NCBI GenBank assembly: GCA_963748625.1
Contig: CAVVJT010000007.1
Location: 160,001-224,000 of the forward strand
Reading direction: 5' to 3'
Source: an uncultured Chloroflexia bacterium
GTDB lineage: Bacteria > Chloroflexota > Limnocylindria > Limnocylindrales > CSP1-4
Length of the DNA stretch: 64,000 nucleotides
Of this stretch, positions 45,118 through 64,000 are shown one piece after another; the stretch's first letter is position 1, and the number at the start of each line of letters is the position of its first letter. Under the pieces are notes generated by a model. It saw only the letters and a list, made by a program, of their open reading frames with translations. It was not told the origin of the DNA and searched no databases. The translations under genes and the position numbers were made by a program.

Positions 45118-46257
45118 ATGCGCAGATTGTCCGGCCGGGGATTGGCCATCGCCGCGATCGCCGCCCTCATCGTCTCGGCATGCGGGAGTGCAGCGTCGCC
45201 TGCGCCCTCTGCTGAAGCGACGGCAGCACCCCAGGCATCCGGGAGTCCGGCCGCGATGACAGGCTGGCCGTACACAGGCAGCCTGAAGGACGGGTCCACG
45301 TTCACCCTGAATCCCCGTGTCGTGGAGAAGCTGCAGAAGGGTGAGCCGATCAACTACGTGTTCAACTACGGCTCCACGGCGATCCCGCTCTTCTCGCCGC
45401 AGTACCTCCAGGGCTACGAGAAGACGCTTCCGGAGGCCCAGAAGATCCTGCCGATGAACGGCACGGCAAGCGCGCCGTCGTCCGCGGTCCAGGACATGAA
45501 CGAGCAGATCGCGATGATCGACGCGCTCTGGAAGGCAGACCAGGTTGACTGCCTGTCGATCCAGTCGACGGGCACCGACGTCTTCACGAAGATCGTGAAC
45601 GACATCGAGGCCTCGGGCATCCCGGTGTTCACCGTCGGTGTCGAGTCCAACGGCAACGAGCTGACGAACTTCACCCAGATCTCCATGAAGGAAGGTCGCC
45701 AGGCGGCGCAGATCGTCGTGGACTGGATGAAGGAGACCGGCCAGGATCTCAAGGTGTTCGCCGTCTCCGGTGGCGATCCCACGCAGAACTGGGCGCAGGG
45801 CCGGATGCAGGGGTTCATCGACGGCATCACGGAAGCCATCCCGGATGCGACATTCCTCAATGACGCCAGCAGCGCGCTGACGACCTCCTACGACCCGGCC
45901 GCGACGTACGACGCCTACAAGGCCTTCATCCAGGGCAACCCGACCGTCCAGGTCATCGAGAACGTGGACATCGGGGCAGAGCACGCGGCCCGCGCGATCG
46001 AGGATTCGGGCAACGCCGGCAAGACCTTCGCCCTCGGCTGGAACGTCAGCATCGGCCAGCTCGATGCGATCGATGCCGGGACCCAGATCGTGGCGCTCGA
46101 CCAGCAGTGGGGCGAGCAGGCAGGCTTCGGGGCACTCGCCTGTGCCGAGTTCCTGAAGAACGGCAAGATCCTGCCCAACAGCCAGGAGCTCAAGCCGGTC
46201 ACGAAGGCGAATTCGGCCGAAGCCCGCACGGAGTTCATGAAGTTCGTCTCGGAGTAG
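45118..46257 (+). CDS. Sugar ABC (CUT2/RbsB-like) substrate-binding lipoprotein
   Basis: AGGAGG RBS, lipobox VSAC, GIPVFTV, RMQGF. Confidence 0.88.
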   Translation: MRRLSGRGLAIAAIAALIVSACGSAASPAPSAEATAAPQASGSPAAMTGWPYTGSLKDGSTFTLNPRVVEKLQKGEPINYVFNYGSTAIPLFSPQYLQGYEKTLPEAQKILPMNGTASAPSSAVQDMNEQIAMIDALWKADQVDCLSIQSTGTDVFTKIVNDIEASGIPVFTVGVESNGNELTNFTQISMKEGRQAAQIVVDWMKETGQDLKVFAVSGGDPTQNWAQGRMQGFIDGITEAIPDATFLNDASSALTTSYDPAATYDAYKAFIQGNPTVQVIENVDIGAEHAARAIEDSGNAGKTFALGWNVSIGQLDAIDAGTQIVALDQQWGEQAGFGALACAEFLKNGKILPNSQELKPVTKANSAEARTEFMKFVSE

Positions 46258-46355
46258 ACCTCCCATCTGGTACGGCGGTCCGGCGGGCGACGCACGCGTC
46301 GCGCTCCGGACCGCCACGCACTCATCCCTGACCGCGCACGAGGAGCTTCCCCAGG

Positions 46356-47423
46356 ATGGCCGCAGACCCGCCCGCGCAGGTGCCCGATCCGCTCACCACA
46401 GGTGCAGCAGTCCCGTGGTCTGCCCGCGCACGGGAGGTCGGCCTGCGTGTCGGGGGCCTCGTGTTCGCGATCATCATCGTCATCGCGGTCTTCGCGATCC
46501 TGAGCAAGCCGAACACCTTCCTGACGATCACGAACGGGCTCGGGATCATGCGCTCGATGAGCACGCTCGCAATCGTCGGGCTGGGGCTCACCCTTGTCGT
46601 CGTCGTCGGTGAGATCGACCTCTCGATCGGCTACATGTACGGGCTCGCCGCCACCCTGTGCGCCGTTGCGTGGATCAACTGGGGCTGGCCCGTCTACCTG
46701 GCGATCGCATTCGCGCTTGGCTGCGCGGCCGTGGTCGGCATGATCAATGGGCTGCTCGTCACGATCGTCAAGATCCCATCCTTCATCGTCACGCTCGGCA
46801 TGGGCCAGCTCATCTTCGGAATGACGCTGCTCACGTCGAACACGGCCAACCTCAACCCCTCGTATCCGACAGGCGGCAAGCCGGTCCCCCAGGGCGAGAT
46901 CGACTGGTTCTTCGGGCTCGCGAACCAGGACCTCCCCTTCGACATCCCGATGCAGGGCCTCTGGATGATCGGCATTGCCATCGTCGTCGGCTTCGTGCTC
47001 GCCCGGTCGCTCTTCGGCTTCCGGCTGAAAGCCATAGGCGGCAACGCCCTCGCGGCCGAGCTCGCCCGGCTCCCGATCCGCAAGTACAAGTTCGTCGCAT
47101 TCATGACCTGCTCGATGCTTGCGGCCGCGGCCGCGATCCTCGACTTCTCGTTCATCGGATCGACGCAGCCGAATGCCGGGGTCTCCCTCACCTTCCCGGT
47201 CTTCGCCGCCGTGATCATCGGCGGTGCGAGCCTGTCGGGCGGGCGCGGCTCCGCTCTCGGGACGCTGAGCGGCGCACTGCTCCTCGCGGTCATCGGCAAT
47301 GGCCTCGCGCTGCTCTCGGTCGGCTCGTACCTGAGCCAGTTCGCGTACGGCGGCGTGACGATCGCCGCGGTCGTCCTCGACCGCTTCACGCAGAGCCTCC
47401 GCAAGGAGGGCCAGCGTGGCTGA
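46356..47423 (+). CDS. Sugar ABC permease (RbsC-like)
   Basis: GEIDLSIG, KIPSFIVTLG, AIGGN..AA, AAVIIGGASLSGGRG. Confidence 0.93.
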   Translation: MAADPPAQVPDPLTTGAAVPWSARAREVGLRVGGLVFAIIIVIAVFAILSKPNTFLTITNGLGIMRSMSTLAIVGLGLTLVVVVGEIDLSIGYMYGLAATLCAVAWINWGWPVYLAIAFALGCAAVVGMINGLLVTIVKIPSFIVTLGMGQLIFGMTLLTSNTANLNPSYPTGGKPVPQGEIDWFFGLANQDLPFDIPMQGLWMIGIAIVVGFVLARSLFGFRLKAIGGNALAAELARLPIRKYKFVAFMTCSMLAAAAAILDFSFIGSTQPNAGVSLTFPVFAAVIIGGASLSGGRGSALGTLSGALLLAVIGNGLALLSVGSYLSQFAYGGVTIAAVVLDRFTQSLRKEGQRG

Positions 47424-48990
47424 CGAGGTCGGGCCGCCCCGCACGGACCCGGCGACAGGCGCGTCGCCAGGTGGCCTCGTCCTCCGGGGTGTGAAGAAGT
47501 GGTACGGCGACACGCACGCGCTCGATGGTCTCGACCTCCACGCGCAGGGCGGAGAAATCCTCGGGGTGGCCGGACCGAATGGCGCCGGCAAGAGCACGAT
47601 GATCAAGGTCCTTGCCGGCGAGGTCAGAGAGGACAGCGGCACGTTCCTGCTCGACGGTGCGGAGTGGCGGCCGATGGAGCACCGCGACCGCGTCGCCGTC
47701 GTGCACCAGGAGCCGCAGCTGTTCCCGAACCTCACGGTCGCCGAGAACATGATGATCGGCCGCGAGGGAACCCGAGCGCTCGTCCGAGGCCTCGACGCCA
47801 GGGAGCGGGCGCTGATGGAGGACCTCGCGATCCTTGACTACGCGGACCGCCCGCTGGGGTCCGTGCCGCTCGCGATGCGCCAGCGCGTCGAGATCGGGCG
47901 TGCGCTCGCCCGGGATGCGCGGGTCTTCCTGTTCGACGAGCCGAACTCCGCCCTCACGCAGGAGGAGTCGAGCGACCTCTTCCGGCGCATGCACTTGCTT
48001 GCTGACGCGGGTGCCGTGGTCATCCTGGTCTCGCACCGGATCGCCGAGCTCGCCGAGCACGCGGCGCGCGTGGCCCTCATCCTCGACGGCCGGTGCACGG
48101 ACGTCCTCGAGGGCGATGCGATGTCCCAGGAAGGGATCGCGGCCGGCCTGGTGACGGGCCAGACCGCCCACGAGCCTGCCGCCGAGCTCGCCCGCCAGAT
48201 GAACGACGTCGCCGGCATGGCCCTGCGTCTCACGGGCTGGACGAGCGCCGAACGCGCCTTCACCGGGATCGACCTGGCCGTCCACGCAGGCGAGATCGTC
48301 GCCATCGTGGGCGTCGAAGGCTCGGGCGGACGCGAGCTCGTGCGCTCGATCGCCGGCTTTGAGCGCAGCACGGGCTCGATCGACGTCGCTGGTCGCGATG
48401 ACGCCGCATCGCTGGCGGCCGGGACTGGCCTCGTGTCCGCGGACCGCGCGGCGAGCCTCTTCGGGAACCTGAGCATCGCGGACAACATGGTCTCGCGGCT
48501 CGACCGCGAGATCGCGACCCGGGGCGGCGCCCTCCGCCGGGGCCGCATGGCACAGGTCGCGGGCGATCTCCGCGCGCGGTTCGGGGTGAAGGCGGGCTCG
48601 CTCGACAGGCCGATCAACTCGCTCTCGGGCGGCAACCAGCAGAAGGTCGCGATCTCGGCGGCCGTCGTGAAGGGCCCCAAGGTCCTTGTGCTCGAGGAGC
48701 CGACCCGGGGCGTGGACATCGCATCGAAACGGGAGATCTACCGGATCCTCCGCGCGCTCGCGAACGAGGACCATGCCGTGGTCATGTTCTGCACGGAGGT
48801 GCCGGAGGTCTTCGAGGCAGCCGATCTCGCCTACGTCATGTCAGACGGGCACATCTCCGCGCCCCTCGTCGTCACCGACTTCGAGGACGTCGAGGCCCTC
48901 GCGCGGGCGATCACGCGCCTGGAGCGCCACGGTCGCGTCGGGCCAGCCGCGGCGGTGCCGCCGACACCCCAGGCGGCGCCGGCCGTCTAA
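47416..48990 (+). CDS. Sugar ABC ATP-binding protein (RbsA-like, two NBDs)
   Basis: GPNGAGKS, FDEP, LSGGNQQKV, EEPTRGVD. Confidence 0.93.
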   Translation: MADEVGPPRTDPATGASPGGLVLRGVKKWYGDTHALDGLDLHAQGGEILGVAGPNGAGKSTMIKVLAGEVREDSGTFLLDGAEWRPMEHRDRVAVVHQEPQLFPNLTVAENMMIGREGTRALVRGLDARERALMEDLAILDYADRPLGSVPLAMRQRVEIGRALARDARVFLFDEPNSALTQEESSDLFRRMHLLADAGAVVILVSHRIAELAEHAARVALILDGRCTDVLEGDAMSQEGIAAGLVTGQTAHEPAAELARQMNDVAGMALRLTGWTSAERAFTGIDLAVHAGEIVAIVGVEGSGGRELVRSIAGFERSTGSIDVAGRDDAASLAAGTGLVSADRAASLFGNLSIADNMVSRLDREIATRGGALRRGRMAQVAGDLRARFGVKAGSLDRPINSLSGGNQQKVAISAAVVKGPKVLVLEEPTRGVDIASKREIYRILRALANEDHAVVMFCTEVPEVFEAADLAYVMSDGHISAPLVVTDFEDVEALARAITRLERHGRVGPAAAVPPTPQAAPAV

Positions 48991-49384: not shown

Positions 49385-50275
49385 CTAGATCCGGTAGAAC
49401 TTCTCCGCGTTCCGGAAGAGCATCTTCTCCTGCTCGTCGCGGCTGAAGCTCTCGGCCAGGATCGTGCGGTACGCGTCCGTCTGCTCCAGGTACGTGGCGT
49501 ACAGGATGTCCACGGGCCAGTTGGTGCCGATCATCACCCGGTCCGGGCCGAAGGCCTCGATGCAGTGCATCACCCACGGCCGGATGGAGTCGATCGTCCA
49601 GCGGTTGTCGGCCATCCCGAACCCGGACACCTTGCAGGCGACGTTCGGCGCCTCGGCGAGCGCCGACATCTCGCTCTTCCACTGGGCGAAGTAGTCGGCG
49701 TCGCGCTGGACCGGGAAGCCGGCATGGCCGAGGATGACCTGGATGTCCGGGAACGCAAGCGCGACATCACGCCCGCTGATGAGCTTGCCCGGCGAGGCGT
49801 TGAGCTCGTAGGAGAGGCCGTGCTGGCGGAGCGCCGCGTAGCCCTTGCGGAACGTGGGGTTCTCGGCATCATCGGGATGGGACCGGATCCGGACGCCCCG
49901 CGTCAGGCTCGAGGCCTCGAGGTGGCGGACCAGCTGGGCCTCGCCGTCCTCGGCCTCGATGTCGCAGAAGACGACCAGCGCGTTGGGGAACCCGAACTCC
50001 TTCGCCACGGCGTCCAGCCACAGCGTCTCCTCGACCGGGTCCGGTCCGGCGTAGGCGGCCTCCACGTGGACGGACTTGATGACGTTGGCGCCGTAGAACT
50101 CCTTGAAGAAGCGCCACGGGTTGCCGATGGTCGAGCGGATCATCTTGTAGTCGCCCAGGAGTCCCGTGTGGCCCGCCCACCCCGGCTCCGTGAGCCAGTC
50201 GTAGTGGAACCGATCGAGCTCCCACAGGTGGTGGTGAGTATCGACCATCGGGATGCTGCGATCGACGTCGGTCAC
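49385..50275 (-). CDS. Amidohydrolase_2 family, sugar lactonase-like (L-fuconolactonase family)
   Basis: VDTHHHLW, SVHVEA, RGVR, GHAGFP, NVACKVSG, FGPDRVMIGTNWPV. Confidence 0.88.
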   Translation of the reverse strand: MTDVDRSIPMVDTHHHLWELDRFHYDWLTEPGWAGHTGLLGDYKMIRSTIGNPWRFFKEFYGANVIKSVHVEAAYAGPDPVEETLWLDAVAKEFGFPNALVVFCDIEAEDGEAQLVRHLEASSLTRGVRIRSHPDDAENPTFRKGYAALRQHGLSYELNASPGKLISGRDVALAFPDIQVILGHAGFPVQRDADYFAQWKSEMSALAEAPNVACKVSGFGMADNRWTIDSIRPWVMHCIEAFGPDRVMIGTNWPVDILYATYLEQTDAYRTILAESFSRDEQEKMLFRNAEKFYRI

Positions 50276-50356
50276 GTGGCTTCCTCCTTGGCTACCCTGT
50301 TCCCGCTGATGCTAGGCTGCCGCGCCGGCCCGCCGGCGCGCGTCGCTGCCGGCACG

Positions 50357-51677
50357 CTACCGCGTGGCCAGCCGCATGGCGATGTCCGCCCACTCCCACA
50401 GGCGCTGCGGCTGGCCGCGGACGGTGCTGATGCCCTTGAAGATGAGCTCCACCGCGCAGCTGTGGCTCGCACACCGGTCGAGCGTGTCCTTCAGGTCACG
50501 CTCGACCAGGCCCGGATCCCACGAGTTCCCGGCCACGTACGACGGGTTGGGCTTGCGCGAGAAGACGTAGTCCGTCCCGATCTCGGCCGCCCCACGCTCC
50601 ACGTCTGCGAGCTGGGTGATCGAGACCTTCCGCACGTTGGGGACCATGCGGACGTACTCCATCTTCGTGTCGAGCGCTTCACAGCAGCCGAAGTACACGA
50701 GCCCGAAGCGCTCGCACCAGCGCTTCGCGTAGTCAACCTCGAACTCCTTGAACATCGCCGGCGAGACCGCGGTCAGGATCTGCGCCATGGCGGATGTCCA
50801 CACATCCTTCGGACGGACATGGTCGGGATCGAAGCCCGGGGCGGGAAGATCGTCGGTGTAGGCCCCGGTCGAGCGGATCTTGGACTGGCTGTGCCCGATC
50901 AGGCCCCGTGCCTCGAGATCGTCGAGCCACTCAAGGTGCGTCTCGGTCAGCCGGGCAAGGAGCCGGTGGACGAACTCGGGCCGCGCGCCCAGGTCGTAGA
51001 GGACGTTCTCGGCACCTCGCCAGTAGACGATCTGATCCCACAGCGCCCACGCGACGTTGCCCGCGGTGTCCGGGTACATCCCGGTGACGAGGTCGCGGGT
51101 GCCCGGCTCCGCCGCCAGGCCGGGCCACTGCTGGGCCTCCGGAAGCCAGCCCTGCATCCGGATCGGCATGATGCCGTCGAAGATCTCGTGGGAGCGTGCC
51201 TCCACCATCGCGGTGGCCTCGGCATCGAAGACGACCACCGGCGTGTGGATCTTGTCGATGTCCTCGTCGGTCTGGACCTGGTCGTGGAACTCGTGCGCGA
51301 CGACGTCGTTGCCGGGATCGACAGCTGCCGTGCGTCTCGTGGATCCGGATGCCGAAGCCTTCCATGCGCATGACCTTCGGCATGACCCACACCGGATCGA
51401 CGACCATGTCCACCCGGAAGTGGTTCCACTGGTAGAGGATCCGGCGCAGCATCGTCTCGACGCCACGCCCGAACGGGTCCTCCGCCTGGAGCGTCAGCTC
51501 GTCGTCGACGTTGAGCTCGTGCCACGGGATCCCGTCGATCTGCACCATCGGCCTGACGGGGTGGAGGTCATTGACGGCCTTCCACAGCGAGATCTTCTCC
51601 TGCTGGACCGGCAGGGCCGCGATGTCGGCGACCTGACTCGCAAGCCCGCGGAGGATCATCAGGTCCTTCTGGTTCAT
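50357..51677 (-). pseudogene. UroD/methyltransferase-like TIM-barrel protein, frameshifted near 51333
   Basis: N-terminal part (MNQKD..PWHEL) and C-terminal part (WRGAENVLYDL, VSPAMFKEF, YFGCCE, RKPNP) are in different frames. Confidence 0.75.
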
Positions 51678-51754
51678 CGGCCTACCGTTCCTTCTCACTG
51701 CAGGATCTCAACGGTGGATGTGGGTCCACCCACGCTGCGTCCCGGCTCTCACGA

Positions 51755-51782
51755 ACTGTAGGACAATCCAGCAACTCGTCAA
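51755..51782 (-). promoter_or_regulatory. Promoter with putative GntR/FadR operator 2
   Basis: Minus strand TTGACG-16 bp-TACAGT containing GATTGTCCTACAGT. Confidence 0.8.
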
Positions 51783-51853
51783 GTCCCTTCGGACGCCCCC
51801 GACCAGGGCCGGTCGGGCTGCCGGCAGCGGGTGTGGCCTGCCGCGAGCCGGTC

Positions 51854-52583
51854 CTAGCGGCGCGAGGCCGACGCGTCGAGCTGCACCGGCGGCGCGCCCT
51901 GCGCCGCGGCGATCCTCGCGACCCGCTTGTGCCCGCCCTCGGTGATGTGATCGCTGACGGCCCGAGCGATGTCGTCGGGGTCTCCGGCCCTCACGATCTC
52001 GAGCAGGCGCGCATGGCGCTCCACGACCGCGATGAAGTCCGGCCCATAGTCGCGTCCGTAGAGGTCGCTGAAGATGAGCAGGCGACGGGCGTGCGTGTGG
52101 ATCACCGCGAGATGCTCGAGGAGCAGCTCGTGGCCGCTCAGCGCCGAGAGCGACTCGTGGAACCGGATATCGGCCTCGACCATCTCGTGGACGTCGCCTG
52201 CGTGGGCCGCGTCGGACAGCGCCTGCAGCCGCTCCTCGAGCATCGCCAGCTCCTGGGTCTCGATCCGGCCCTCCTGGGCCGCCGTGCGGGCGGCGATACG
52301 ACTCGAGGAGGTCGCGCATCGTGTAGATCTCGCGCGCGCGTTCCGCCGTGACCATCGTGACCACGGGGCCACGATGGGCGGCCCGCGACACGAGGCCCAA
52401 GTTCGCCAGCACCCGCATCGCCTCGCGGACGGTGCCCCGCGACGTCCCGAGCGTGTGGGCCAGGCTCGCCTCGGACAACTGCTGGCCTGGCGCCAGGCGC
52501 CCTGCGATGACAGCGTCGCGGACATACATGACGACGGCATCCGTGAGGCTCTGGGGTCTGTCGAGCGGGGACAGTTCCTGCAT
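51854..52583 (-). pseudogene. GntR family (FadR/FCD) transcriptional regulator, frameshifted near 52295
   Basis: HTH GRLAPGQQLSEASLAHTLGTSRGTVREAM; FCD part DIRFH..H..H in the next frame; one extra base. Confidence 0.88.
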
Positions 52584-52665
52584 GGCCGGCCTCACCTGTC
52601 GAACTGCGGGAGATGGAGTGCCGCGAGTTGGATGATATCGGGACCCGATCGAGCGACGTAGCCTC

Positions 52666-52693
52666 TTGACGGCATGTCGGATTGTCCTACAAT
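52666..52693 (+). promoter_or_regulatory. Promoter with putative GntR/FadR operator 3
   Basis: TTGACG-16 bp-TACAAT containing GATTGTCCTACAAT; divergent from the gntR gene. Confidence 0.82.
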
Positions 52694-52761
52694 GAAACCC
52701 GGTTGGCAAGACCTGCCGGCTGGCGCCCCTGCGCGTCGTCGTGAGCGAGAGGATCCGCGTG

Positions 52762-53518
52762 ATGGTGAGGCTGCAGTTCTTCGGCACCGCGGGCTACCGG
52801 ATCGTGACCGACTCAGGCGCGACGGTCCTGATCGACCCCTACCTCGACCAGAACGCGGTCTGCCCGATCAAGGCCGCGGACCTCGACTCCGCCGACGTGC
52901 TCCTGATCACCCACAACGCGTATGACCACTTCGGCGATGCGCCGGCCATCATCAAGCGGCTCCGCCCGCTCGTCGTCTGCGCGAAGGACGTCGCCCACAC
53001 GCTGACCAGCGTCCACGATGTGGACCCGGAGCTGATCCGGGTCACGATCTGGGGCCTCCAGATGGAGGTTGCCGGCGTCCGGATCCTGCCGCTCCCGAGC
53101 GCGCACTGGTCCTTCGGCGTCACCCCCACCGGGGAGCTGCTCTCGGGCCCGGCGGTCGGATACCTCGTCGATGCCGGGCCGGGCGTCCGCATCTACCACC
53201 CCGGCGATTCGGCCATCACGACGGACATGCGGCTGTGGGGTGAGCTCTACCGGCCCACCGTGGGCCTGATGGTCATGGCCCTGCCTGAGCTGTCGCTCCC
53301 GCACATGGAGTGCTACCGCTCAGGGCGAGACCACGCCGTACGAGGCCCTCCTGGCCAGCCAGTGGCTGGGCCTCGAGCACGTCGTCACCAGCCACTATCA
53401 AAGCCCGGATCACCCCGATGTCCAGGCCTTCCTGCGACTCGCGGAGGCGACGGCTGAGGCCAAGGGCTATGCGCCCAGGATCAGCGTCCTGCGGGCCGGT
53501 GATGAGATCGATCTCTAG
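52762..53518 (+). pseudogene. MBL-fold metallo-hydrolase (UPF0173-like), frameshifted near 53324
   Basis: LIDPY, THNAYDH, IYHPGDS. Removing one G restores ETTPYEALLASQWLG..SHY..DEIDL* ending at TAG 53518. Confidence 0.8.
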
Positions 53519-53563
53519 GCACGCTGCAATCCCCATTCGCACGCAGTAGAAAGGGCGTCCTGC

Positions 53564-55659: not shown

Positions 55660-55682
55660 CCGGCAGCGGCAAGGAGGAAGCG

Positions 55683-55961: not shown

Positions 55962-56006
55962 CGGTTGTGCGTCGTGTCTCACCCCAGCCAGTGAACTGAG
56001 GCGAAG

Positions 56007-58227
56007 ATGACCTTGGACTCCGCGCCGGCGGTGGAGATCGCGGAAGGCCGCCGATCCGCCCTCGACTACCCCAACATCCGCGCCTGCGAGGTGCCGTCCA
56101 GCGAGCTTGCCGCCACGCCCAAGCGCACGCTGGCCCTCGGCCTGTTCATGATCCACACGATCCGCCTGTTCGAGCGATGGCTCCTTGACCATGCCGAGCT
56201 TGTCCACGGCCCACTGCACTCGAGCATCGGGCAGGAAGCGGTCGCGGTGGGCACGGCGCTGGCGCTGGAGCCGACGGATCGGATCACCTCGACGCATCGG
56301 GCCCATCACGACGTGCTGGCGAAGCTGATCGCCCACGCCGCACCCGCGGACTTCGACCCGGCGACGGCGACCGAGGTTCCGGCTGCGGTCCATGAGGCCG
56401 TCCTGCGGACGTTCGCCGAGATCCTCGGGCTCGAGCAGGGCCTCTGCGGCGGGCGGGGCGGATCGATGCACCTCGCCGACGTGGACGGCGGCGTCATGAC
56501 AAGCGCGATCGTGGGCGGCGGGATTCCCGTCTCCGCGGGTCAGGCCCTGGCGGCGAAGCTGCGCGGAAATGGGGGCGTCGCCCTCGCCTCATTCGGCGAC
56601 GGTGCGACCTCGATCGGGGCCTTCCACGAGGCGGCCGTGCTCGCCCGGGCCTGGAAGCTGCCAATGATCTTCCTGCTCGAGAACAACCAGTACTCGGTGG
56701 CGACGACCCTGCGCGAGACCGCCGGCTTCGAGGAGCTCGCGATCCGCTCCAGCGGCTACGACATGCCGGCGCTCATCGTGGACGGCATGGATCCGATCGC
56801 GGTACTGACAGCGATGACCGCGGCGCGCGCACGGGCCGTCCGCGAGGGCCCCGTGTTCGTCGAGGCGGTGACCTACCGCTACTACCACCAGAACGGGCCG
56901 CTGCCCGGCAGTGCGTTCAAGTACCGGACGAAGGACGAGGAGCGGCACTGGGCCACGCTCGACCCTGTCCAGGTCTTTCCCGCGGAAGCTGCTCGATGCC
57001 GGTCTGCTCGGCGCGGCCGAGGCCGACCGTGTCGAGGAGCTCGCCAGGTCGCTCGTCGCCGGCTGTGCGTCCGCGGTCACCGAGGAGACCGCCGACGGCC
57101 TGCGCATCCCGCCGTCGCTCTACCCATCGACAGCCGACGCGGGCCGGGGCCTGCTGGGTCCCGGCGTCACCGACGTGCCGCCCGACCTCCTCGACACGAC
57201 CCCCGTCGCCGGGGGCGCGGAGATCACCTACGGCGCGGCGGTCTCGGGCGTGATCGCTCGCTGGCTGGAGCGGGACCCCGAGGCGTTCGTCCTCGGGGAG
57301 GAGGTCGGCCACCTGGGCGGCGGCGTCATGGGGTTCACCAAGGGCGCCCTCGCAACGGCCCCGGAGCGGGTCCTCAGCACGCCCATCTGCGAGAACGGGT
57401 TCACGGGTGCCGCCTTCGGGGCGGCCCTCTCCGGGATGCACCCGATCGTGGAGTTCATGTACCCCGACTTCACGCTCGAAGCGGCCGACCAGCTGTTCAA
57501 CCACATCCCGAAGGCCCGCTACATGTTCGGCGGGATCCACCAGATCCCGCTCGTCGTGCGGACGCAGATCAGCCGTGGACGCGGCTACGGGCCCCAGCAC
57601 GGGTGCGACCCGGCGGCGCTGTTCGCGGTCTACCCCGGGTGGAGGGTCGCATCGCCGTCGACTGCGGCCGAGTATGTCGGGCTGTTCAACGCGGCCATGC
57701 TCAGCCGCGACCCTGTCCTGGTCATCGACGACCACCGCCTGACCAAGACCACGGCGGCGCTCCCGGCCGGGGGCATGGACCACGTCATCCCGCCGGGCAC
57801 GGCCCGCCTCGTGCGCGCTGGCCGCGATGCGACCGTCGTCGCCTGGGGCTACGGGCTCCAGCGGGTCCTGGCCGTGGCAGAGCGCCTGGACGCTGAGGGG
57901 ATCTCGGTCGAGGTCATCGACCCCCGCTGGCTGGACCGGGCCAGCTTCGACCGGGCGACGGTGCTGGCATCCGTTGCACGCACCGGGGGGCTGGTGATCG
58001 TCGAGGATGCCCAGCGCAGCCTCTCGATGGGCAGCCAGATCCTGGACTACCTGCTGCCGGACCTGTTCGAGCACCTGCGGACGGCGCCCATCCGGGTGAC
58101 CGGCGAGGACGTGTATTCACCGGTCTCGAAGCCGCTCGAGACGTTCGTCCACCTGCGCGACGAGAACGTCGAGGCGGGCATCCGGACGGTGACAACGGCG
58201 GCGACCGCCGGGAGGGCACGACGATGA
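56007..58227 (+). pseudogene. Fused E1 alpha-beta TPP-dependent dehydrogenase, frameshifted near 56978
   Basis: Alpha part (IGQEA, GRGGSMH, GDG..ENNQY) joins the beta part (STPICENG, DQLFNH, GPQH) after removing one base in TTTCCC. Confidence 0.87.
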
Positions 58228-58469
58228 GCGATCCGACGCGGCTCCGGATGCCCAACCTCGGGGCCGAGGCGACTGGCGGCACGATCGTCGCCTGGCTCCG
58301 GGCCGTCGGCGACGAGGTCGTCGCGGGCGAGGTGGTCGCCGAGATCGAGACCGAGAAGGCGACCGTCGAGCTCGAGGCGCCGGTCGCCGGGCGCATCTCC
58401 GAGATCACGCAGCCTGTCGGAGCGGAGGTCGCGGTAGGCGAAACGCTCGCGCTCATCGAGCCAGGGTGA
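58224..58469 (+). CDS. Second stand-alone lipoyl domain protein
   Basis: MPNLG, EIETEKA, EAPVAG; ATGA overlap. Confidence 0.9.
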   Translation: MSDPTRLRMPNLGAEATGGTIVAWLRAVGDEVVAGEVVAEIETEKATVELEAPVAGRISEITQPVGAEVAVGETLALIEPG

Positions 58470-58569: not shown

Positions 58570-59193
58570 ATGGCTGATCTGACGGCACTGGGCAAGGCAA
58601 TCGAGGCCGGCGACCGAGCGACCGCTGTGGCGCTCACGAACGAGGCGCTCGAGACTGGCGTGCCGGCCCAGGAGATCCTCGACGCGATGACCGACGCGAT
58701 GGCGGTGACCGGCGTTCGGTTCCAGGCCAATGAGATCTTCGTGCCCGAGATGCTGATCGCCGCGCGCGCCATGAAGGAGGCGATGGCGGTCCTCGAGCCC
58801 GTGCTGGCAGGCGCCGGCATCAAGCCCGAGGTCACGGCCGTGCTCGGCACCGTGAAGGGCGACCTCCACGACATCGGCAAGAACCTCGTGGGCATGATGT
58901 GGAAGGGCGCGAACATCGCGGTGATCGACCTGGGCACGAACGTCCCCCCGGAGCGCTTCGGCGAGGCCGCCAAGGAGCACGGCGCCAAGCTGGTCGGGAT
59001 CTCCGCCCTGCTGACCACGACGATGGTCGGCATGAAGGACGCGGTGGACGCCATCCGGGCCCAGCAGCCCGACGCGAAGATCATCGTCGGCGGCGCGCCC
59101 GTCACCCCGGAGTTCGCCATGGAGATCGGGGCGGACGGATACGCGCCCGATGCCGGGGCTGCCGTGGATGTCGCGCACCAGGTACTGGCGTAG
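58570..59193 (+). CDS. Corrinoid (cobalamin-binding) methyl-carrier protein, MtbC/MtqC-like
   Basis: Four-helix cap FVPEMLIAARAM; GDLHDIGKNLV (DxHxxG); SALLTTTM; VGGAP. Confidence 0.95.
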   Translation: MADLTALGKAIEAGDRATAVALTNEALETGVPAQEILDAMTDAMAVTGVRFQANEIFVPEMLIAARAMKEAMAVLEPVLAGAGIKPEVTAVLGTVKGDLHDIGKNLVGMMWKGANIAVIDLGTNVPPERFGEAAKEHGAKLVGISALLTTTMVGMKDAVDAIRAQQPDAKIIVGGAPVTPEFAMEIGADGYAPDAGAAVDVAHQVLA

Positions 59194-59255: not shown

Positions 59256-60389
59256 ATGAATTCCAAGCAACGCGTCATCGCCGCGCTCGAGCACCGCGAG
59301 CCGGACCGGGTTCCGGTCGGCGAGATGGCCATCGACTTCGAGCTCACCCAGTTCGCGCTCGGTCGGCCGACCCTGTACCGCTCCAAGTGGAACGAGTACA
59401 TGGCCCTGTGGAACGGCCGACGCGACGAGATCGTTGCGAGCTACGGTCGCGACATCGTCGATCTCGTGCGCCATTACGACCTGGACTACCTCTCGATCCC
59501 CCTTGCGCCCGCGAGGCAGGCCACCTATGAGCCGCCGGAGTTCACCGGCGAGTACCAGTGGAAGGACAAGAACGGCCGCACCTGGCAGTACTCGCCGGAG
59601 TCCGAGGGTCACGCCATGTGCATCGATCCGATCGACCTCACGGTCGACGACATCGTGATGCCTCCGGACCCTGCACCGGTCGACTGGTCGCGGCTGGAGC
59701 ACTTCGAGTACATCGTCAAGGAGCTCGGGCAGACGCACTTCATCATGGGCCGGGTGCCCGCGGGCCTGTTCCCGTGGCAGGAGACGCTCGGCAGCATCGA
59801 CGGCTTCCTGATCAAGATGTACGACGATCCCGAGTTCGTCGATCGGGCGGTCGAGGCCCAGACGCGCGAGGCGATCGCGTACGCGAAGGCGATGATCGAG
59901 ATCGGCTGCGACGCCGTCTCGCCCGACGGTGACGTGTGCGACAACCGCGGACCCACGATGGGTCCCGATCTCTTCCGCCGGTTCTGCCTTCCCTCGGTCG
60001 GGCGCCTGGCGGATGCCATCCACGCCGCGGGCGGCTGGGATGTCATGCACAGCGACGGGTACCTCTGGCCGATCCTCGACGACCTCGTGACGGCCGGCAT
60101 CGATGGCTGGCAGGGCATCCAGCCGCGCATCGGCATGGACATGAAGCTCCTCAAGGAGCAGTTCGGCGACCGGTTGTGCCTGTTCGGCGGCGTCGACATC
60201 GACACACTCGTGCTCGGCAGCCCGGATGACGTCGCGGAGCAGGTCGACTACGCGATCACCCACGCGGCCGCGGGCGGCGGGCTCGTCATCGGATCAGGCA
60301 ACACCATCATGCCCGGCGTCCGACCCGAGAACTTCCAGGCCATGCTGGACCGGACGCGCCGGAGCGGCGCCTACCCGGCTCACGGCTGA
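59256..60389 (+). CDS. UroD/MtaA-CmuA methyltransferase family protein
   Basis: MNSKQRV..EPDRVP, MHSDG, LFGGVD, GGGLVIGSGN. Confidence 0.88.
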   Translation: MNSKQRVIAALEHREPDRVPVGEMAIDFELTQFALGRPTLYRSKWNEYMALWNGRRDEIVASYGRDIVDLVRHYDLDYLSIPLAPARQATYEPPEFTGEYQWKDKNGRTWQYSPESEGHAMCIDPIDLTVDDIVMPPDPAPVDWSRLEHFEYIVKELGQTHFIMGRVPAGLFPWQETLGSIDGFLIKMYDDPEFVDRAVEAQTREAIAYAKAMIEIGCDAVSPDGDVCDNRGPTMGPDLFRRFCLPSVGRLADAIHAAGGWDVMHSDGYLWPILDDLVTAGIDGWQGIQPRIGMDMKLLKEQFGDRLCLFGGVDIDTLVLGSPDDVAEQVDYAITHAAAGGGLVIGSGNTIMPGVRPENFQAMLDRTRRSGAYPAHG

Positions 60390-60436: not shown

Positions 60437-61672
60437 ATGAACGAACGCGAGAGGATGCTCGCCTGTCTGCGCGGCGAGCCGACGGACCAGCTGCCCTGGG
60501 CGCCTCGCATGGACCTGTGGTCCATCGCCCAGCAGGCTCGCGGGACCATGCCCGAGCGATTCAAGGGCCTGAACACGGCGCAGGTCGCGGACGAGCTCGG
60601 TGTGGGGTGCCACGCCGTCCGGGCGGACTGGACGATCGTCCCGCAGTTGGAGCGCGACCCCCGCGACTTCATGTGGCGCGCGTTCGGGTTCGAGACGTGC
60701 TGGGACTTCCCGTTCAAGCTGGAGATCAACGACCTCAAGGTCGACTTCAAGTACGAGGCCGGCGACGGATCCGGCAAGTACTGGACGACGATCCACACCG
60801 CCGCCGGGCCGCTCGAGACGTACATGGAGTACGAGAACTCCATGGCCAAGAACGGGATCACGGCGCCGGAGGTGAAGCTGTACCCGCTTCCCGACCCGAC
60901 GAACTGGGAGAAGGTCGCGCAGGTGTACGACGCCTTCGAGGTCGTGCCCACCCCGGACGCGTACCGCGCCTTCAAGGCCAGGATCGGTGACCGCGGCCTC
61001 GCGCTCGCGCAGGGCCCCAACTCCGCCTCGCCGATGCACTCGATCCTGCACATGCTCACGCCGATGGAGACGTTCTTCTACGCCTACATGGACGTGCCGG
61101 ACGAGCTCCACAAGCTCGCCGAGCGGATCACGCCCTTCTTCGAGCGGATCCTGGACGTCATGTGCGAGTGCGACGCGGAGGTCGTCTGGTGGGGTGCCAA
61201 CTACGACCAGGCCACCACGTGGCCGCACTTCTTCGCCACTGAGATCGTCGACTACGTCCGCATGGTCGGCGACCGCCTCCGCGCCTCCGGCAAGTACATG
61301 GCCAGCCACTGCGACGGCGAGAACGACAAGCTCCTGGAGTACATGCCGACCGCCCGGTTCGACATCGCCGAATCGGTGCCCACCGTGCCGATGGTGAAGC
61401 GCTCGCTCAAGGAGCTCCGCGAAGGGTTCGGCGAGCCCACCACCATCTGGGGCGGCCTGCCGGCGACCGCCTTCATGCCCGGCCCGATGTCCGACGAGTC
61501 GTTCGAGGCCCACCTCGACACCGTGTTCGGAGAGCTGGGATCCGGCAAGCGGACCATCCTGGGCGTCTCGGACAACGTGCCCGTGGACTGCACCATCGAG
61601 CGGCTGGACCGGGTGACCGAGCGGGTCAAGGCGTTCGGCCCCGTGAACCCGGCTCCGGCCGGGCAGCTCTAG
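60437..61672 (+). CDS. UroD/MtaA-CmuA methyltransferase family protein
   Basis: MNERERML..D.LPW, SHCDG, IWGG, ILGVSDNVP. Confidence 0.85.
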   Translation: MNERERMLACLRGEPTDQLPWAPRMDLWSIAQQARGTMPERFKGLNTAQVADELGVGCHAVRADWTIVPQLERDPRDFMWRAFGFETCWDFPFKLEINDLKVDFKYEAGDGSGKYWTTIHTAAGPLETYMEYENSMAKNGITAPEVKLYPLPDPTNWEKVAQVYDAFEVVPTPDAYRAFKARIGDRGLALAQGPNSASPMHSILHMLTPMETFFYAYMDVPDELHKLAERITPFFERILDVMCECDAEVVWWGANYDQATTWPHFFATEIVDYVRMVGDRLRASGKYMASHCDGENDKLLEYMPTARFDIAESVPTVPMVKRSLKELREGFGEPTTIWGGLPATAFMPGPMSDESFEAHLDTVFGELGSGKRTILGVSDNVPVDCTIERLDRVTERVKAFGPVNPAPAGQL

Positions 61673-61737: not shown

Positions 61738-62139
61738 ATGACCATGGAGACAGCACAGCGGTCCGCCGTTCCGGTTGTCAGGCTGCCGGGCCGTGACATC
61801 CAGCGGATCATCGGCAAGGACGCCTTCCTTGCCAGCGGCCGCATGACCGTGGGGACCGCGCACTACTCGGACGGCGCGGGCCCGATGGAACCCCACCAGC
61901 ACGCCGAGGAGTGCATCGTGGTCCTGGAGGCGCGGGGGGCGCGGGTCCGGTATGGGCCCACTCCCGACGACCTGCCCACGGTGATCAACCTCGAGGCCGG
62001 CCTGGTGCTCCACATCCCGGAGCTCGAGTGGCACGTCTTCGAGTGGGATGCGGGTGGCCATGCCGACTGCCTCGTCATCTACGGCCAGGTCGACAACATC
62101 CGGCCGGAGGACATCCAGCAGGCGCAGGCTGCCGGCTGA
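61738..62139 (+). CDS. Cupin domain protein
   Basis: PHQHAEE and IPELEWHVF metal-binding motifs. Confidence 0.85.
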   Translation: MTMETAQRSAVPVVRLPGRDIQRIIGKDAFLASGRMTVGTAHYSDGAGPMEPHQHAEECIVVLEARGARVRYGPTPDDLPTVINLEAGLVLHIPELEWHVFEWDAGGHADCLVIYGQVDNIRPEDIQQAQAAG

Positions 62140-62189: not shown

Positions 62190-63110
62190 ATGGCATCCGA
62201 GCAGCTGCCCACGGTCGGGTTCATCGGTCTCGGGATCATGGGCAAGCCGATGGTCCGCAACCTGTTGCGGGCGGGCTACGCCGTCACCGTTCACGATGTC
62301 GTCGCCGCGCCCGTTGACGAGCTTGTCGCCGATGGAGCCAGCAGCGCGGGAACGGCGCGCGAGGTGGCTGCGTCAACCGACCTGCTGATCACCATGCTGC
62401 CCGATTCGCCGGACGTCGAGGCCGTCTACCTCGGTGTCGACGGTGCGCTCGCGGCGGCCCGGCCCGGCTGGCTGGCCATCGACATGAGCTCCATCTCACC
62501 GCGGGTCGCCCGAGAGATGGCGGATCGCGCCGCTGCAGCTGGCGCCGAGATGCTTGACGCACCGGTCAGCGGCGGCGACAAGGGCGCGATCGCGGGCACC
62601 CTCTCGATCATGGTCGGCGGCTCGGACGCCGCCTTCGAGCGAGCCCAACCGGTCCTCGGGGCCATGGGCAAGACGATCGTCCATGTCGGGCCGTCGGGTG
62701 CCGGCCAGGTGGCCAAGGTGTGCAACCAGGTCGTCGTCGCGGTCGTCATCGAGGCGGTCTCGGAGGCGCTGGTCCTCGGCGCGAAGGCGGGGGTCGATCC
62801 AAACCGGATCGCGGACGTGCTCCAGGGCGGACTCGCGGCCACCAAGGTCCTCGAGATGCGGCGGTCCAACATCATGGATGGCAACTTCGCCCCGGGATTC
62901 CGTGTTCGCCTCCACCTCAAGGACCTCAAGAACGCGCTCGACCTGGCCCGGGAGGCGGGCGTCGTCCTGCCGGCCGCGGCGGGGGTTGAGCAGCTCATGC
63001 AGCGGATGCCGATCGCCGGCCGCGGCGACTACGACCACTCAGGCCTCATCACGGTCCTCGAGGACCTGGCCGGAGTCCGCGTCTGCGACGTCGCTGCCTC
63101 GCCTGAATGA
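62190..63110 (+). CDS. garR: Beta-hydroxyacid dehydrogenase (2-hydroxy-3-oxopropionate reductase-like)
   Basis: GFIGLGIMGKPM, DAPVSGG, GQVAKVCNQ, F.PGF..LHLKDL. Confidence 0.88.
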   Translation: MASEQLPTVGFIGLGIMGKPMVRNLLRAGYAVTVHDVVAAPVDELVADGASSAGTAREVAASTDLLITMLPDSPDVEAVYLGVDGALAAARPGWLAIDMSSISPRVAREMADRAAAAGAEMLDAPVSGGDKGAIAGTLSIMVGGSDAAFERAQPVLGAMGKTIVHVGPSGAGQVAKVCNQVVVAVVIEAVSEALVLGAKAGVDPNRIADVLQGGLAATKVLEMRRSNIMDGNFAPGFRVRLHLKDLKNALDLAREAGVVLPAAAGVEQLMQRMPIAGRGDYDHSGLITVLEDLAGVRVCDVAASPE

Positions 63111-63150
63111 CCGGGTGGACCAGAGAGCCAGGACACCCAGAGGGACCCAC

Positions 63151-64000
63151 ATGACCGACTACTTCAGCCGCCTCGTCTCGGAAACCCCATCCAGGGTCTG
63201 GGTCAACAACCCGACCGAAGAGGAGATGGGACTCGCGCTTGCCGCCGGAGCCGTCGGTGCGACGACGAACCCGGCGTATGGCGGAGGTCTCCTCCGGCGC
63301 TCGCCGGGCGAGGTCATCCCCGTCGTGGACGCATGCCTGTCCGCCTCCGATGACGACCGGGTGGTCGCCGATCTCGTCCAGCAGCGCCTCGTCGCCCGGA
63401 TCACCGCCCGCTTCCGGCCGCTCTTCGAGTCATCGGGCGGCACGGCCGGCTTCGTCTCGATCCAGGGGTCGCCGGAGACCGACGTGGACGGGGAGATCAT
63501 CTGGGAGGAGGCCGAGGCCGGCCACGCGATCGCTCCGAACGCGACGCCCAAGATCCCCGCCACCCTGCCCGGGTTCGTCGCCATGGAGCGGGTTGTCGAG
63601 CACGGCTGGCCGATCATCGTCACCGAGGTGTTCTCGCTCGACCAGGTTGAGGCCGCGTGCGAGCTCTATCTCCGCGTGACGGCCCGGACGGGCGTGCGCA
63701 GCCCGTTCTTCATGAGCCCCATCACCGGCATCCTGGGCGACCACCTCAAGAAGCTGGCGAAGGCCCAAGGCCTTGACGTGCCGGTCCGGGCCATGGATCT
63801 CGCCGGCATCGGCCTGTCGCGGCGCTGCGCCGCCCTGGTCGCCGAGCGCAACTACCCGGTGACGCTCCTGTTCGGTGGTGCCCGCATTCCGGAGGATCTC
63901 ACCGGGCTCATCGGCGCCGCGCACCATGCCACCATCAACTGGTCGACGTTCGCCGAGATCCGGGCGGCGAATCCGCCGATCGAGCGCACGATCACCGAGC
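63151..64000 (+). CDS. Transaldolase family protein, runs off window
   Basis: MTDYFSRL..WVNNP, GATTNP, VSIQG, PKIPAT (Schiff-base Lys); absent from the ORF track because it has no stop in the window. Confidence 0.85.
   Translation, partial: MTDYFSRLVSETPSRVWVNNPTEEEMGLALAAGAVGATTNPAYGGGLLRRSPGEVIPVVDACLSASDDDRVVADLVQQRLVARITARFRPLFESSGGTAGFVSIQGSPETDVDGEIIWEEAEAGHAIAPNATPKIPATLPGFVAMERVVEHGWPIIVTEVFSLDQVEAACELYLRVTARTGVRSPFFMSPITGILGDHLKKLAKAQGLDVPVRAMDLAGIGLSRRCAALVAERNYPVTLLFGGARIPEDLTGLIGAAHHATINWSTFAEIRAANPPIERTITE

Follow-up and report, generated by a model that had tools for sequence, protein, structure and literature searches.

The described systems closest to the locus presented here are corrinoid O-demethylases, 2-oxo acid and acetoin dehydrogenase complexes, and pathways for sugar acids, deoxy sugars and sulfosugars. 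The locus is an island at positions 45118-64000 of the window, by which we mean the whole stretch of 64,000 nucleotides analysed (positions 160001-224000 of contig CAVVJT010000007.1, here C7) from the genome of an uncultured Chloroflexia bacterium (G000; 4.63 Mb, 10 contigs, ~71% G+C). It resembles the O-demethylases in that a protein with cap and Rossmann domains and a DxHxxG motif adjoins methyltransferase candidates of the URO-D superfamily, the named three-component types being, as we take them for this comparison, MtvABC, OdmABD, MtoABCD and MtaABC; with the dehydrogenase complexes it shares E1 alpha and beta chains carrying thiamine pyrophosphate (TPP) motifs, lipoyl-lysine domains and an E2 core with the DHRxxDG motif. 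The glucarate/galactarate GarR pathway and the non-phosphorylative deoxy-sugar pathways, presumably the nearest known sugar-acid routes, have in common with it a GarR above the equivalog cut-off, an Amidohydro_2 lactonase-like gene, an FAH-family hydrolase and, in its relatives, short-chain dehydrogenases/reductases (SDRs); the differences are that its core genes include no dehydratase or GarL-type aldolase, and that nothing in those pathways corresponds to its corrinoid and lipoyl modules. Judged by family matches, every part of the island belongs to a known kind of enzyme, but defining features of the named systems fail in it; a literature search found no published description of this gene combination or pathway, in agreement with the preliminary description of the stretch. 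The reading put forward here, tentatively and as something just short of evenly balanced, is a single co-regulated route by which an O-methylated sugar or sugar acid would be catabolised; the earlier single-pathway interpretation is in this sense partly supported.

Positions are window coordinates, continued as window-equivalent numbers beyond 64000 for downstream genes. Because spurious open reading frames (ORFs) are abundant at this G+C content, genes were called via third-position G+C (GC3), and each call was then checked with Pfam and NCBIfam. By these matches, the gene content of the island is confirmed as real, with the families at the places given here, and the closest named public relatives of its genes are in metagenome-assembled genomes labelled uncultured Chloroflexia or Chloroflexi. 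Its main unit is a run of 12 plus-strand genes whose intergenic distances range from -4 to 100 bases:

52741-53518, plus strand: MBL-fold hydrolase (UPF0173-like; Pfam), with one extra base near 53322
53564-54640, plus strand: E1 alpha 1, TPP-binding, with the GDG...NN motif (E1_dh 293 bits; TIGR03182 331 bits, cut-off 394)
54637-55659, plus strand: E1 beta 1 (Transket_pyr and Transketolase_C; PRK09212 351 bits, cut-off 321; start codon read)
55683-55961, plus strand: free lipoyl protein 1 (Lip1), 92 aa, motif ETDKT (Biotin_lipoyl 67.6 bits, no other domain)
56007-58227, plus strand: fused E1 alpha-beta 2, ~740 aa, with one extra base near 56977 (Pfam on both frames)
58224-58469, plus strand: free lipoyl protein 2 (Lip2), 81 aa, motif ETEKA (Biotin_lipoyl, no other domain)
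58570-59193, plus strand: corrinoid protein, cap and Rossmann domains, DLHDIG His-on motif (PF02607 68.7 bits, PF02310 94.5 bits)
59256-60389, plus strand: URO-D1, MtaA/CmuA-like methyltransferase candidate (URO-D, PF01208, 88 bits)
60437-61672, plus strand: URO-D2, of a ~400-aa family, predicted partner of the corrinoid protein (URO-D 38.6 bits)
61738-62139, plus strand: small cupin, 133 aa, HxH...E motif (Cupin_2 E = 0.005, under the cut-off)
62190-63110, plus strand: GarR-type 2-hydroxy-3-oxopropionate (tartronate semialdehyde) reductase (TIGR01505 364.4 bits, cut-off 340.75)
63151-64000, ending at window-equivalent 64191, plus strand: divergent transaldolase-family protein (TAL), 346 aa (TAL_FSA, PF00923, 48.5 bits, cut-off 27)

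Direct sequence evidence argues that one regulon extends over about 47 kb, starting at about 44997, and the co-regulation claimed earlier is supported by an operator-like motif shared by the heads of the transcription units. The core GATTGTCCTACA has three exact copies in the window (0.08 expected; 0 of 100 shuffles reached three); across the 4.63 Mb of the genome there are seven exact copies and one with a single mismatch, where base composition predicts about 0.07 exact copies, and all eight are confined to C7:205011-252330, a segment of ~47 kb. Seven of the eight stand in a TTGAC-N12/13-GGATTGTCCTACA[GA]T context, the upstream hexamer being degenerate at the 69521 copy. The promoter scan returned four sigma-70-like sites against 1.0 expected, all coinciding with operator-like sites and heading four units, namely the importer, the 50357-51677 gene with Amidohydro_2, the GntR gene, and the run from MBL to TAL:

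44997-45024, plus strand: promoter-like site with the exact core GATTGTCCTACA at 45011-45022, 107 bases ahead of the start of the importer's substrate-binding protein (SBP)
51755-51782, minus strand: promoter-like site with an exact operator-like core at 51757-51768, heading the unit of the 50357-51677 gene and Amidohydro_2
52666-52693, plus strand: promoter-like site (10/12 matches) with the palindrome ATTGT-CCT-ACAAT, core at 52680-52691, between the GntR gene and the long operon, also serving the position of the divergent GntR promoter

The ATTGT-CCT-ACAAT core is an inverted repeat that recurs at the eight sites, and inverted-repeat operators of the GT-N-AC type are typical of GntR/FadR-type regulators; the putative operator ATTGTCCTACA, which overlaps each -10 box, is most likely acted on by the island's own GntR/FCD protein. 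Variant sites occur at matching places in loci L010, L011/L091 and L012. Five of the copies lie past the window, at window-equivalent 69521, 72069, 81158, 84146 and 92330 (G000:C7:229521-252330), and head a URO-D4/glyoxalase unit, a second CUT2 importer with GFO/IDH/MocA, an Amidohydro_2-like gene, a second GFO-like gene and an unannotated ORF; URO-D4, a further URO-D gene, is 5.6 kb past the window. The preliminary description had the operon continuing beyond the window: the plus-strand operon ends 191 bases past it, at a perfect hairpin that faces a convergent operon, and it is the regulon that extends for ~28 kb more. The terminator scan gave three sites (4.3 expected), all within genes and none between genes of the operon, so that it carries little information.

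As for the corrinoid module, the corrinoid protein proposed earlier is recognised by Pfam through its B12-binding_2 and B12-binding domains. Its DLHDIG motif is at residue 98, with D98, H100 and G103 invariant in 19 sequences; its top NCBIfam match is MtgC_2 (MtgC/MtbC-like), at 161 bits against a cut-off of 370, and by these matches it belongs to the corrinoid methyltransferase-partner superfamily, outside the named types MtgC, MtbC and MtaC. URO-D1 scores 77 bits on TIGR01463 (cut-off 235) and matches 4ay7 (MtaA) at E 6e-13. URO-D2, matched by no NCBIfam model or solved sequence, has at least 335 homologues of ~50% identity across many phyla, none of the 120 listed bearing a functional name; 94 genome loci of this family were found and 80 kept. 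The family consensus is THxDGEN, with no conserved Cys, and the AlphaFold2 (AF2) model of URO-D2, with a predicted local distance difference test (pLDDT) value of 91.9, matches the folds of UroD, MtaA (4ay7, TM 0.69) and MetE.

The complex predicted for the corrinoid protein with URO-D2 scored 0.75 (runs 0.74-0.76), the best of three controls scoring 0.00; of 80 solved complexes 58 attained the mark, as did 2 of 110 mismatched pairs. At least 90% of contacts were common to the runs, with a partner pLDDT of 86, and in the predicted interface invariant residues at the mouth of the URO-D2 barrel meet the corrinoid protein on its cobalamin face (residues 97-105, 148-151 and 176-177); the modelling supports binding between the two. 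Gene neighbourhoods point the same way: outside three close relatives, a corrinoid protein is present in 23 of 77 URO-D2 loci, or 15 of the 44 whose flanks reach 5 kb or more in each direction. Neighbours were tallied from longest-ORF calls of 130-650 aa, some of them spurious, with ORFs at locus edges or overlapping URO-D2 excluded. The 136 nearest ones, from 71 loci, include URO-D (12), DUF1638 (6), DctP (4), 2-Hacid_dh (4), B12-binding (4), SGL (3), glucuronyl-esterase-like (3) and RACo (2) proteins; in the next ring (the first 138 of 195 candidates, from 49 loci) there are URO-D (9), MFS (6), 2-Hacid_dh (5), DctM (4), HpcH_HpaI (4) and DUF1638 (3). Passages of two papers tie DUF1638 and RamA-like proteins to corrinoid reactivation (PMC5764234, PMC12478193), and the URO-D2 family is accompanied in other phyla by DUF1638 and RACo helpers, as corrinoid systems are. 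The genome as a whole is unusually rich in corrinoid genes, with nine MttB-superfamily genes above the cut-off, at least six corrinoid-protein paralogues, three RACo and three DUF1638 genes, together with five MeTr-like pterin-binding genes and about nine non-HemE URO-D genes; several full clusters are on contigs C8 and C10, and none of the MttB-superfamily, RACo, DUF1638 or MeTr-like genes is part of the island.

That richness in MttB-superfamily, corrinoid-paralogue, RACo and MeTr-like genes would be compatible with a module that scavenged methyl groups from a non-carbohydrate donor (a methoxylated aromatic, methanol or similar), the remaining genes handling C1-C3 units by, for example, hydroxypyruvate/tartronate semialdehyde reduction or lyase chemistry of the malyl- or citramalyl-CoA type. 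URO-D-type methyltransferases reportedly act on methoxylated aromatics (Kurth et al.), RipB/Ich-like hydratase and CitE/malyl-CoA-lyase-like genes are present in the downstream operon, and 2-hydroxyacid dehydrogenases are common beside URO-D2 homologues (9 of 274 neighbours scanned). However, in relatives the corrinoid gene directly follows the sugar-type CUT2 importer, the neighbourhoods are dominated by lactonases, SDRs, TRAP transporters and enolase-superfamily genes, and no aromatic ring-cleavage gene was seen in family scans of the island; methyl scavenging of this sort is considered very unlikely.

Regarding the lipoate-dependent module, the two E1 systems of the preliminary description, each followed by a free lipoyl protein, were recovered with the Pfam families E1_dh, Transket_pyr, Transketolase_C and Biotin_lipoyl; both E1 alpha parts have the GDG...NN TPP motif, and the lipoyl lysine is kept in Lip1 and Lip2. 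The fused E1 has intact orthologues of 737-762 aa in the related genomes G062, G063 and G408. The acyltransferase follows just past the window, in the convergent operon:

64227-69379 (window-equivalent; L009:2227-7379), minus strand: convergent operon of Lip3, E2 core, 490-aa protein, CitE-like, RipB/Ich-like and FAH genes

Lip3 (81 aa, read by its lipoyl motif only) opens this operon, in the same frame as the E2 core and separated from it by one stop and two codons. The E2 core has 243 aa, PF00198 as its only domain, a DHRAVDG motif and no lipoyl domain; it is followed by an uncharacterised protein of 490 aa, a CitE/malyl-CoA-lyase-like protein, a RipB/Ich-like enoyl-CoA hydratase and an FAH-family hydrolase closest to 2,4-didehydro-3-deoxy-L-rhamnonate hydrolase (352 bits, cut-off 500). 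The order of a lipoyl gene and then the E2 core is kept in G062, G063 and G408, and since G062 and G063 show MBL-E1a-E1b-Lip-E1ab-Lip-E2core in one run, this division of E2, with mini-proteins as lipoyl carriers and the core left bare, is conserved and no artefact.

Three separate lipoyl proteins (81-92 aa) in place of a multidomain E2, an E2 core with neither a lipoyl nor a detected subunit-binding domain, the fusion of one E1 and the lack of an E3 in the island distinguish this system from the 2-oxo acid and acetoin complexes. Acyltransferase cores of the OdhA type use lipoyl domains supplied in trans, and the core described here likewise has no lipoyl domain of its own. Actinobacterial OdhA is, according to PMC10415282 and PMC7568260, an E1o fused to a succinyltransferase domain, whereas in the island the core is free-standing and the lipoyl donors are dedicated mini-proteins. 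A search for the fused E1 in 401 genomes of the phylum, a tally that includes G289 and G101 (flagged as unpublished), gave 140 matches at E <=1e-60; identity exceeded 42% only in G000 itself, in G307 (the same genome as G062, from another genus of the family to which G000 belongs), in G408 (68%) and in G373 (43%). G373 was rejected as a relative of the island, with only weak ATPase and glyoxalase matches near its fused E1.

Two reactions are equally eligible for these E1s. In the biosynthesis of quinocarcin and naphthyridinomycin, the E1/E2-like system QncN/QncL transfers a glycolyl unit; it is a precedent for an E1-like enzyme that moves a ketose C2 unit onto a lipoyl group, with the difference that the known system is biosynthetic and ends on an acyl carrier protein. 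Because E1 alpha and beta are transketolase homologues and repeatedly pair with a transaldolase (see below), the pairing suggests a transketolase-like abstraction of a C2 unit onto lipoate. It is just as plausible that they oxidatively decarboxylate a 2-oxo sugar acid.

The transaldolase and the GarR-like reductase named earlier both stand, the former on its TAL_FSA match and the latter on TIGR01505 above the cut-off. TAL reaches at best 54 bits on the NCBIfam transaldolase/FSA models, against a cut-off of 367, and represents a distinct transaldolase subfamily; K134, invariant in 16 sequences within NATPKIPAT, is presumably the Schiff-base lysine of the transaldolase strand motif. The TAL-like family has at least 577 proteins at E <=1e-10 (8000 candidates scored) and is larger than the distribution of the island. 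Around 74 metagenome TAL loci, searched by tblastn with the island proteins, there are matches to E1 (10), lipoyl (5), E2 core (2), MBL (6), corrinoid protein (4), URO-D (5), CUT2 ABC parts (14), FAH (6), GarR (3) and cupin (1); if only the 39 loci flanked by 3 kb or more are considered, these numbers become E1 9, ABC 13, MBL 5, FAH 5, corrinoid protein 3 and URO-D 3. Two of the loci, L133 and L169, are apparently duplicate entries of a single sequence, with a weak E1 match. TAL directly adjoins E1 genes in L119 (E1a-E1b-Lip-TAL), L171 (E1a-E1b-Lip-E2core-TAL), L123, L172, L132 and L150, and corrinoid or URO-D genes in L148 (CP-TAL; CP, corrinoid protein) and in L113, L115 and L116 (URO-D-TAL). 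These arrangements give independent support to a functional coupling of TAL with both the E1/lipoyl and the corrinoid modules.

An informative case is an operon of a Treponemataceae metagenome-assembled genome (L065:6483-19056), which contains GH31, an AraC regulator, URO-D2, TRAP DctPQM, URO-D, SDR, TAL-like, 5-keto-L-gluconate-epimerase-like (223 bits, cut-off 300) and GarR (495 bits, cut-off 397) genes; no corrinoid protein was seen in 21 kb of this locus, and its gene content fits an acid sugar. The cupin of the island, claimed earlier, has the HxH...E motif, its Pfam match falling under the cut-off; searches returned no solved relative, and a protein atlas places it among unnamed cupin clusters.

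Taken together, cupin, TAL and GarR mirror the isomerase, transaldolase and reductase trio of the sulfo-TAL pathway for sulfoquinovose, as outlined in PMC7491151, where an unusual C6-modified ketose is the substrate of the transaldolase and the C3 aldehyde goes to a GarR-family reductase. A pathway of this type for sulfoquinovose or a relative, ending with sulfolactaldehyde reductase, would also suit the GH31 glycosidase that opens the L065 operon. The scores speak against it: the reductase has 364 bits on the tartronate semialdehyde model and 191 on the sulfolactaldehyde model (NF012005, cut-off 348), as against 495 and 215 for the L065 enzyme; on a further model, PRK11559, the island's GarR has 351 bits, under the cut-off of 397. 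TAL is far from canonical transaldolases (54 vs 367 bits), the L065 GH31 reaches 118 bits against a cut-off of 553 on PRK10426, which we take to be the YihQ-type model, and no sulfoquinovosidase, GH31 or sulfite-related gene is among the island genes scanned. A sulfosugar substrate is accordingly extremely improbable, and the split proposed below for TAL and GarR would be the carboxylate counterpart of sulfo-TAL.

The arrangement of the modules in relatives bears on whether they form one pathway. URO-D2 orthologues of at least 68% identity were found in G061, G062 and G063, all three with both modules, and the corrinoid/TAL and E1/lipoyl modules are side by side in four of four genomes with an orthologous island, in three gene orders. 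G061 keeps the order of the window; in G062 the two modules are divergent neighbours; G063 has Amidohydro_2 / SBP-permease-ATPase-CP-UroD1-(SGL lactonase)-UroD2-cupin-GarR-TAL-UroD, SDR, GntR / MBL-E1-Lip-E1ab-Lip-E2core; loci L011 and L012 read SBP-permease-ATPase-CP-UroD1-...-UroD2-cupin-GarR-TAL. In two relatives the importer is followed directly by the corrinoid gene. Transposase genes (DDE_Tnp_1; IS110-type) flank island homologues at L012:693-2087 and L065:20248-21195.

The varying order between modules would also suit a mosaic under one regulator, that is, branches for several related plant- or soil-derived compounds in which the modules do not act in sequence on one molecule. Such a mosaic agrees with a regulon that holds two CUT2 importers, two GFO/IDH/MocA, two Amidohydro_2 and four URO-D genes over 47 kb, with the URO-D2 family adjoining E1/lipoyl genes in 0 of 77 loci outside four close genomes, and with G408, a genome of the same genus, which at L107:1298-17533 has E1ab2-Lip-E2core and, besides it, another set of E1a/E1b/Lip/partial E2, together with ABC importer genes and a GarR homologue (64%), but no corrinoid gene in the 40 kb examined. 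The modules nevertheless stay adjacent in four of four genomes despite rearrangement, and in G000 they make up a single 12-gene unit in which no gap exceeds 100 bases and no terminator-like site falls between genes. As TAL adjoins both E1/lipoyl and corrinoid/URO-D genes in unrelated contigs, one pathway is favoured over the mosaic, which we regard as possible and on the doubtful side.

In a single pathway, the island's products could act as follows. The CUT2 ABC system, assigned by family, would import a carbohydrate-like substrate. The corrinoid protein, URO-D2 and URO-D1 would then form a methyl-transfer relay that strips an O-methyl group, a step proposed because of family membership, gene neighbourhood and the predicted complex; a reductive activase, and perhaps a pterin methyltransferase, would be borrowed from elsewhere in the genome. 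Lactonase-like hydrolases, joined in relatives by an SDR, may handle an oxidised lactone or acid form. The cupin would isomerise the keto sugar or sugar acid, and the divergent TAL would split the product: from a 2-keto-hexonic or hexuronic acid, breakage of the C3-C4 bond would release a dihydroxyacetone unit and a C3 aldehyde acid, tartronate semialdehyde, which GarR would reduce to glycerate. An O-methyl group on the hydroxyl that becomes the aldehyde would block this split, which would give the demethylase its role. Finally, the two TPP-dependent E1s would load acyl groups, from a ketose C2 unit in transketolase fashion or from a 2-oxo acid, onto the free lipoyl proteins, and the lipoyl-less E2 core, whose architecture is evident, would pass them to CoA.

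As for the substrate, an O-methylated sugar acid or deoxy sugar is the favoured guess, though a weak one. Neighbours of URO-D2 in other phyla are compatible with acid sugars (TRAP, 2-hydroxyacid dehydrogenase, HpcH/HpaI and enolase-superfamily genes), and the FAH, lactonase and SDR matches point equally to 6-deoxy sugars; because of these 6-deoxy-sugar signals, and because GarR rarely adjoins TAL elsewhere, the class stays a guess. 4-O-Methylglucuronate was considered and not adopted beyond a guess: glucuronyl-esterase-like matches account for only 3 of the 136 nearest neighbours (best E 6.5e-9), and alpha-glucuronidase families are absent from the 25 commonest families of either scan. The paper found on this compound (PMC13425298) deals with ester hydrolysis only.

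Several observations weigh against a single demethylating pathway. The modules are separable, since G408 has the lipoyl set, GarR and an importer, and no corrinoid, URO-D, cupin or TAL genes were found in 40 kb of it; of the co-conservation expected earlier, the adjacency in four genomes stands and strict linkage does not. The island is also, on genome comparison, accessory, since only 1 of the 36 other species genomes searched in its genus has a URO-D2 homologue (53% identity), a patchy distribution with which the flanking transposases fit. In MtaA the zinc site is His-x-Cys ... Cys, and in the 4ay7 alignment its HICG and GCG motifs face HSDG and GNT in URO-D1; because both cysteines are replaced, URO-D1 is not a zinc-thiolate/thiol methyltransferase of the MtaA type; either URO-D protein may be the one that takes the methyl group. 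The three-component corrinoid systems further differ in that the island is without the activase and pterin methyltransferase, and in that its methyl-transfer genes are embedded in a sugar-type import and catabolic operon and not in a C1 or aromatic one. Among the downstream components that the preliminary description suggested looking for, the lipoyl-less E2 core is present, and the others are outside the island: no activase (RACo/RamA; PF14574) was found in it, the three genome matches being on C8 and C10 only; no pterin-binding methyltransferase (PF00809) was found in it, none of the six genome matches being on C7; and no E3 was found in it, the best genome match to PF02852, on contig C4 near another E2, being the likely E3 of the system. 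Solved corrinoid complexes of other methyltransferase families exist, and the pass of the predicted complex may partly reflect likeness to them; the neighbour tallies include spurious calls. GarR and cupin are near the TAL-like gene in only 3 and 1 of the 74 loci, so that the TAL-GarR logic rests on a narrow clade and on L065. The SBP gave no ligand-informative relative in NCBIfam or solved-structure searches, and four island genes have frame breaks that, if genuine, would leave the regulator and one E1 inactive in this strain.

The remaining genes of the island precede the 12-gene operon:

45118-46257, plus strand: periplasmic sugar-type SBP (CUT2; Peripla_BP_4, Pfam; ATG and ribosome-binding site read)
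46356-47423, plus strand: ABC permease (BPD_transp_2, Pfam)
47416-48990, plus strand: ABC ATPase with two ABC_tran domains (Pfam)
49385-50275, minus strand: Amidohydro_2 hydrolase, lactonase-like (Pfam 123 bits)
50357-51677, minus strand: uncharacterised protein of ~440 aa, with a frame change near 51270-51320 (GC3 frame switch, translations)
51854-52583, minus strand: GntR-family regulator with helix-turn-helix (HTH) and FCD domains, with one extra base near 52296 (Pfam, two frames)

The importer, the lactonase-like amidohydrolase and the MBL hydrolase of the preliminary description were all recovered by Pfam at these places and, for MBL, at 52741-53518. The SBP has weak NCBIfam matches (38 bits on a rhizopine and 25 bits on a rhamnose SBP model), and of the solved structures the sugar-binding protein 2ioy, still a distant match (E 2e-9), comes nearest to it. 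The top NCBIfam match of the Amidohydro_2 protein is L-fucono-1,5-lactonase (83 bits, cut-off 400), with 4dlf as the nearest solved chain; the MBL protein scores 91.6 bits on PRK00685 (cut-off 144), and a motif check did not see the canonical HxHxDH in it. Two of the three UroD/MtaA-like proteins announced earlier are in the stretch as URO-D1 and URO-D2, and the likely third, at 50357-51677, gave no Pfam or NCBIfam match. A protein language-model atlas gives it a lead to URO-D at 0.90, an hhalign comparison with the URO-D2 profile is negative (probability 0.2), and the AF2 model of its L035 homologue, with a pLDDT of 46.5 from a four-row alignment, is too poor for a fold search; it is possibly a very distant URO-D-like barrel. 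In L035, an intact homologue of 402 aa covers both halves of the gene and adjoins a URO-D2 homologue. Upstream of the island, positions 36141-44935 have no copy of the motif and encode two S15-family peptidases, a DUF3307 protein, a major facilitator superfamily (MFS) transporter and a flavin-monooxygenase-like Pyr_redox_3 protein adjoining a cNMP-binding protein.

The four frame-broken genes carry single-base insertions: the 50357-51677 gene, GntR (~52296), MBL (~53322) and the second E1 (~56977). In GntR, the HTH and FCD domains are recognised by Pfam in different frames; its extra base is absent in L010, L012 and the soil contigs of sequencing runs X1 and X4, that of MBL in L010, L012, L091 and the X1 and X4 contigs, and that of the second E1 in L010 and L091. 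The break in the 50357-51677 gene was deduced from the GC3 frame switch and the intact L035 homologue that spans both halves. A GC3 frame-switch scan, crude and uncalibrated (in the 80 kb that could be checked it found 3 of 4 true breaks, with one false hit), flagged 371 candidate frameshifts over all contigs, a mean of ~8 per 100 kb that rises on C2 to 15 per 100 kb; because it flags so many genome-wide, the four breaks are probable assembly errors.

The alternative is that the island is decaying in this strain, the regulator, MBL, the second E1 and the 50357-51677 gene being pseudogenes. Four single-base insertions within 6 kb (~51.3-57.0 kb) exceed the genome mean of ~8 candidates per 100 kb, those in GntR, MBL and the second E1 are outside homopolymer runs, and the extra bases at 52296 and 53322 are absent in relatives and in ~90-93% alike soil contigs. 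The 371 candidates nevertheless fit an error-prone long-read assembly, codon-position GC is fully gene-like on either side of every break, and no same-strain reads covered the breaks, the three short identical pieces from sediment run X5 lying elsewhere; decay is judged unlikely. The number of flagged candidates suggests many indel errors in the assembly. Soil metagenome contigs ~90-93% alike, from runs of two studies (X1/X2 and X4), cover nearly all of 50300-58300, and a few 151-base pieces from X5 are identical to parts of it; no sequencing run contained half of the sequence words of this segment, the best share being 0.12. The X1 and X4 contigs come from relatives, and they show an intact frame for those relatives, not for this strain. 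Close relatives of the island occur in several samples.

In conclusion, the island could encode a new kind of carbohydrate degradation, in which corrinoid O-demethylation by a new URO-D-like family, an oxidative transketolase (E1s passing sugar-derived acyl units to free lipoyl proteins and a lipoyl-less E2 core) and a tartronate-semialdehyde-yielding TAL are joined in one GntR-type regulon; in this full form the proposal is unlikely. Free lipoyl proteins, a bare E2 core and a fused E1 depart from the textbook architecture of lipoate complexes, and the repeated adjacency of the split E2 system to a divergent transaldolase suggests a so far undescribed chemistry. The operator motif, with the putative GntR target sites ATTGTCCTACAAT, offers a ready handle on the system, and the effector of GntR should be an intermediate of the pathway. 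Polymers of plants, algae and microbes are rich in methylated sugars and sugar acids. The only enzymatic route for carbohydrate demethylation met in the literature search is that by cytochrome P450, described in PMC6292453. If the proposal is true, a B12-dependent route would be new to carbohydrate catabolism, and it would give a role to a URO-D-like family that comprises hundreds of unnamed proteins over many phyla.

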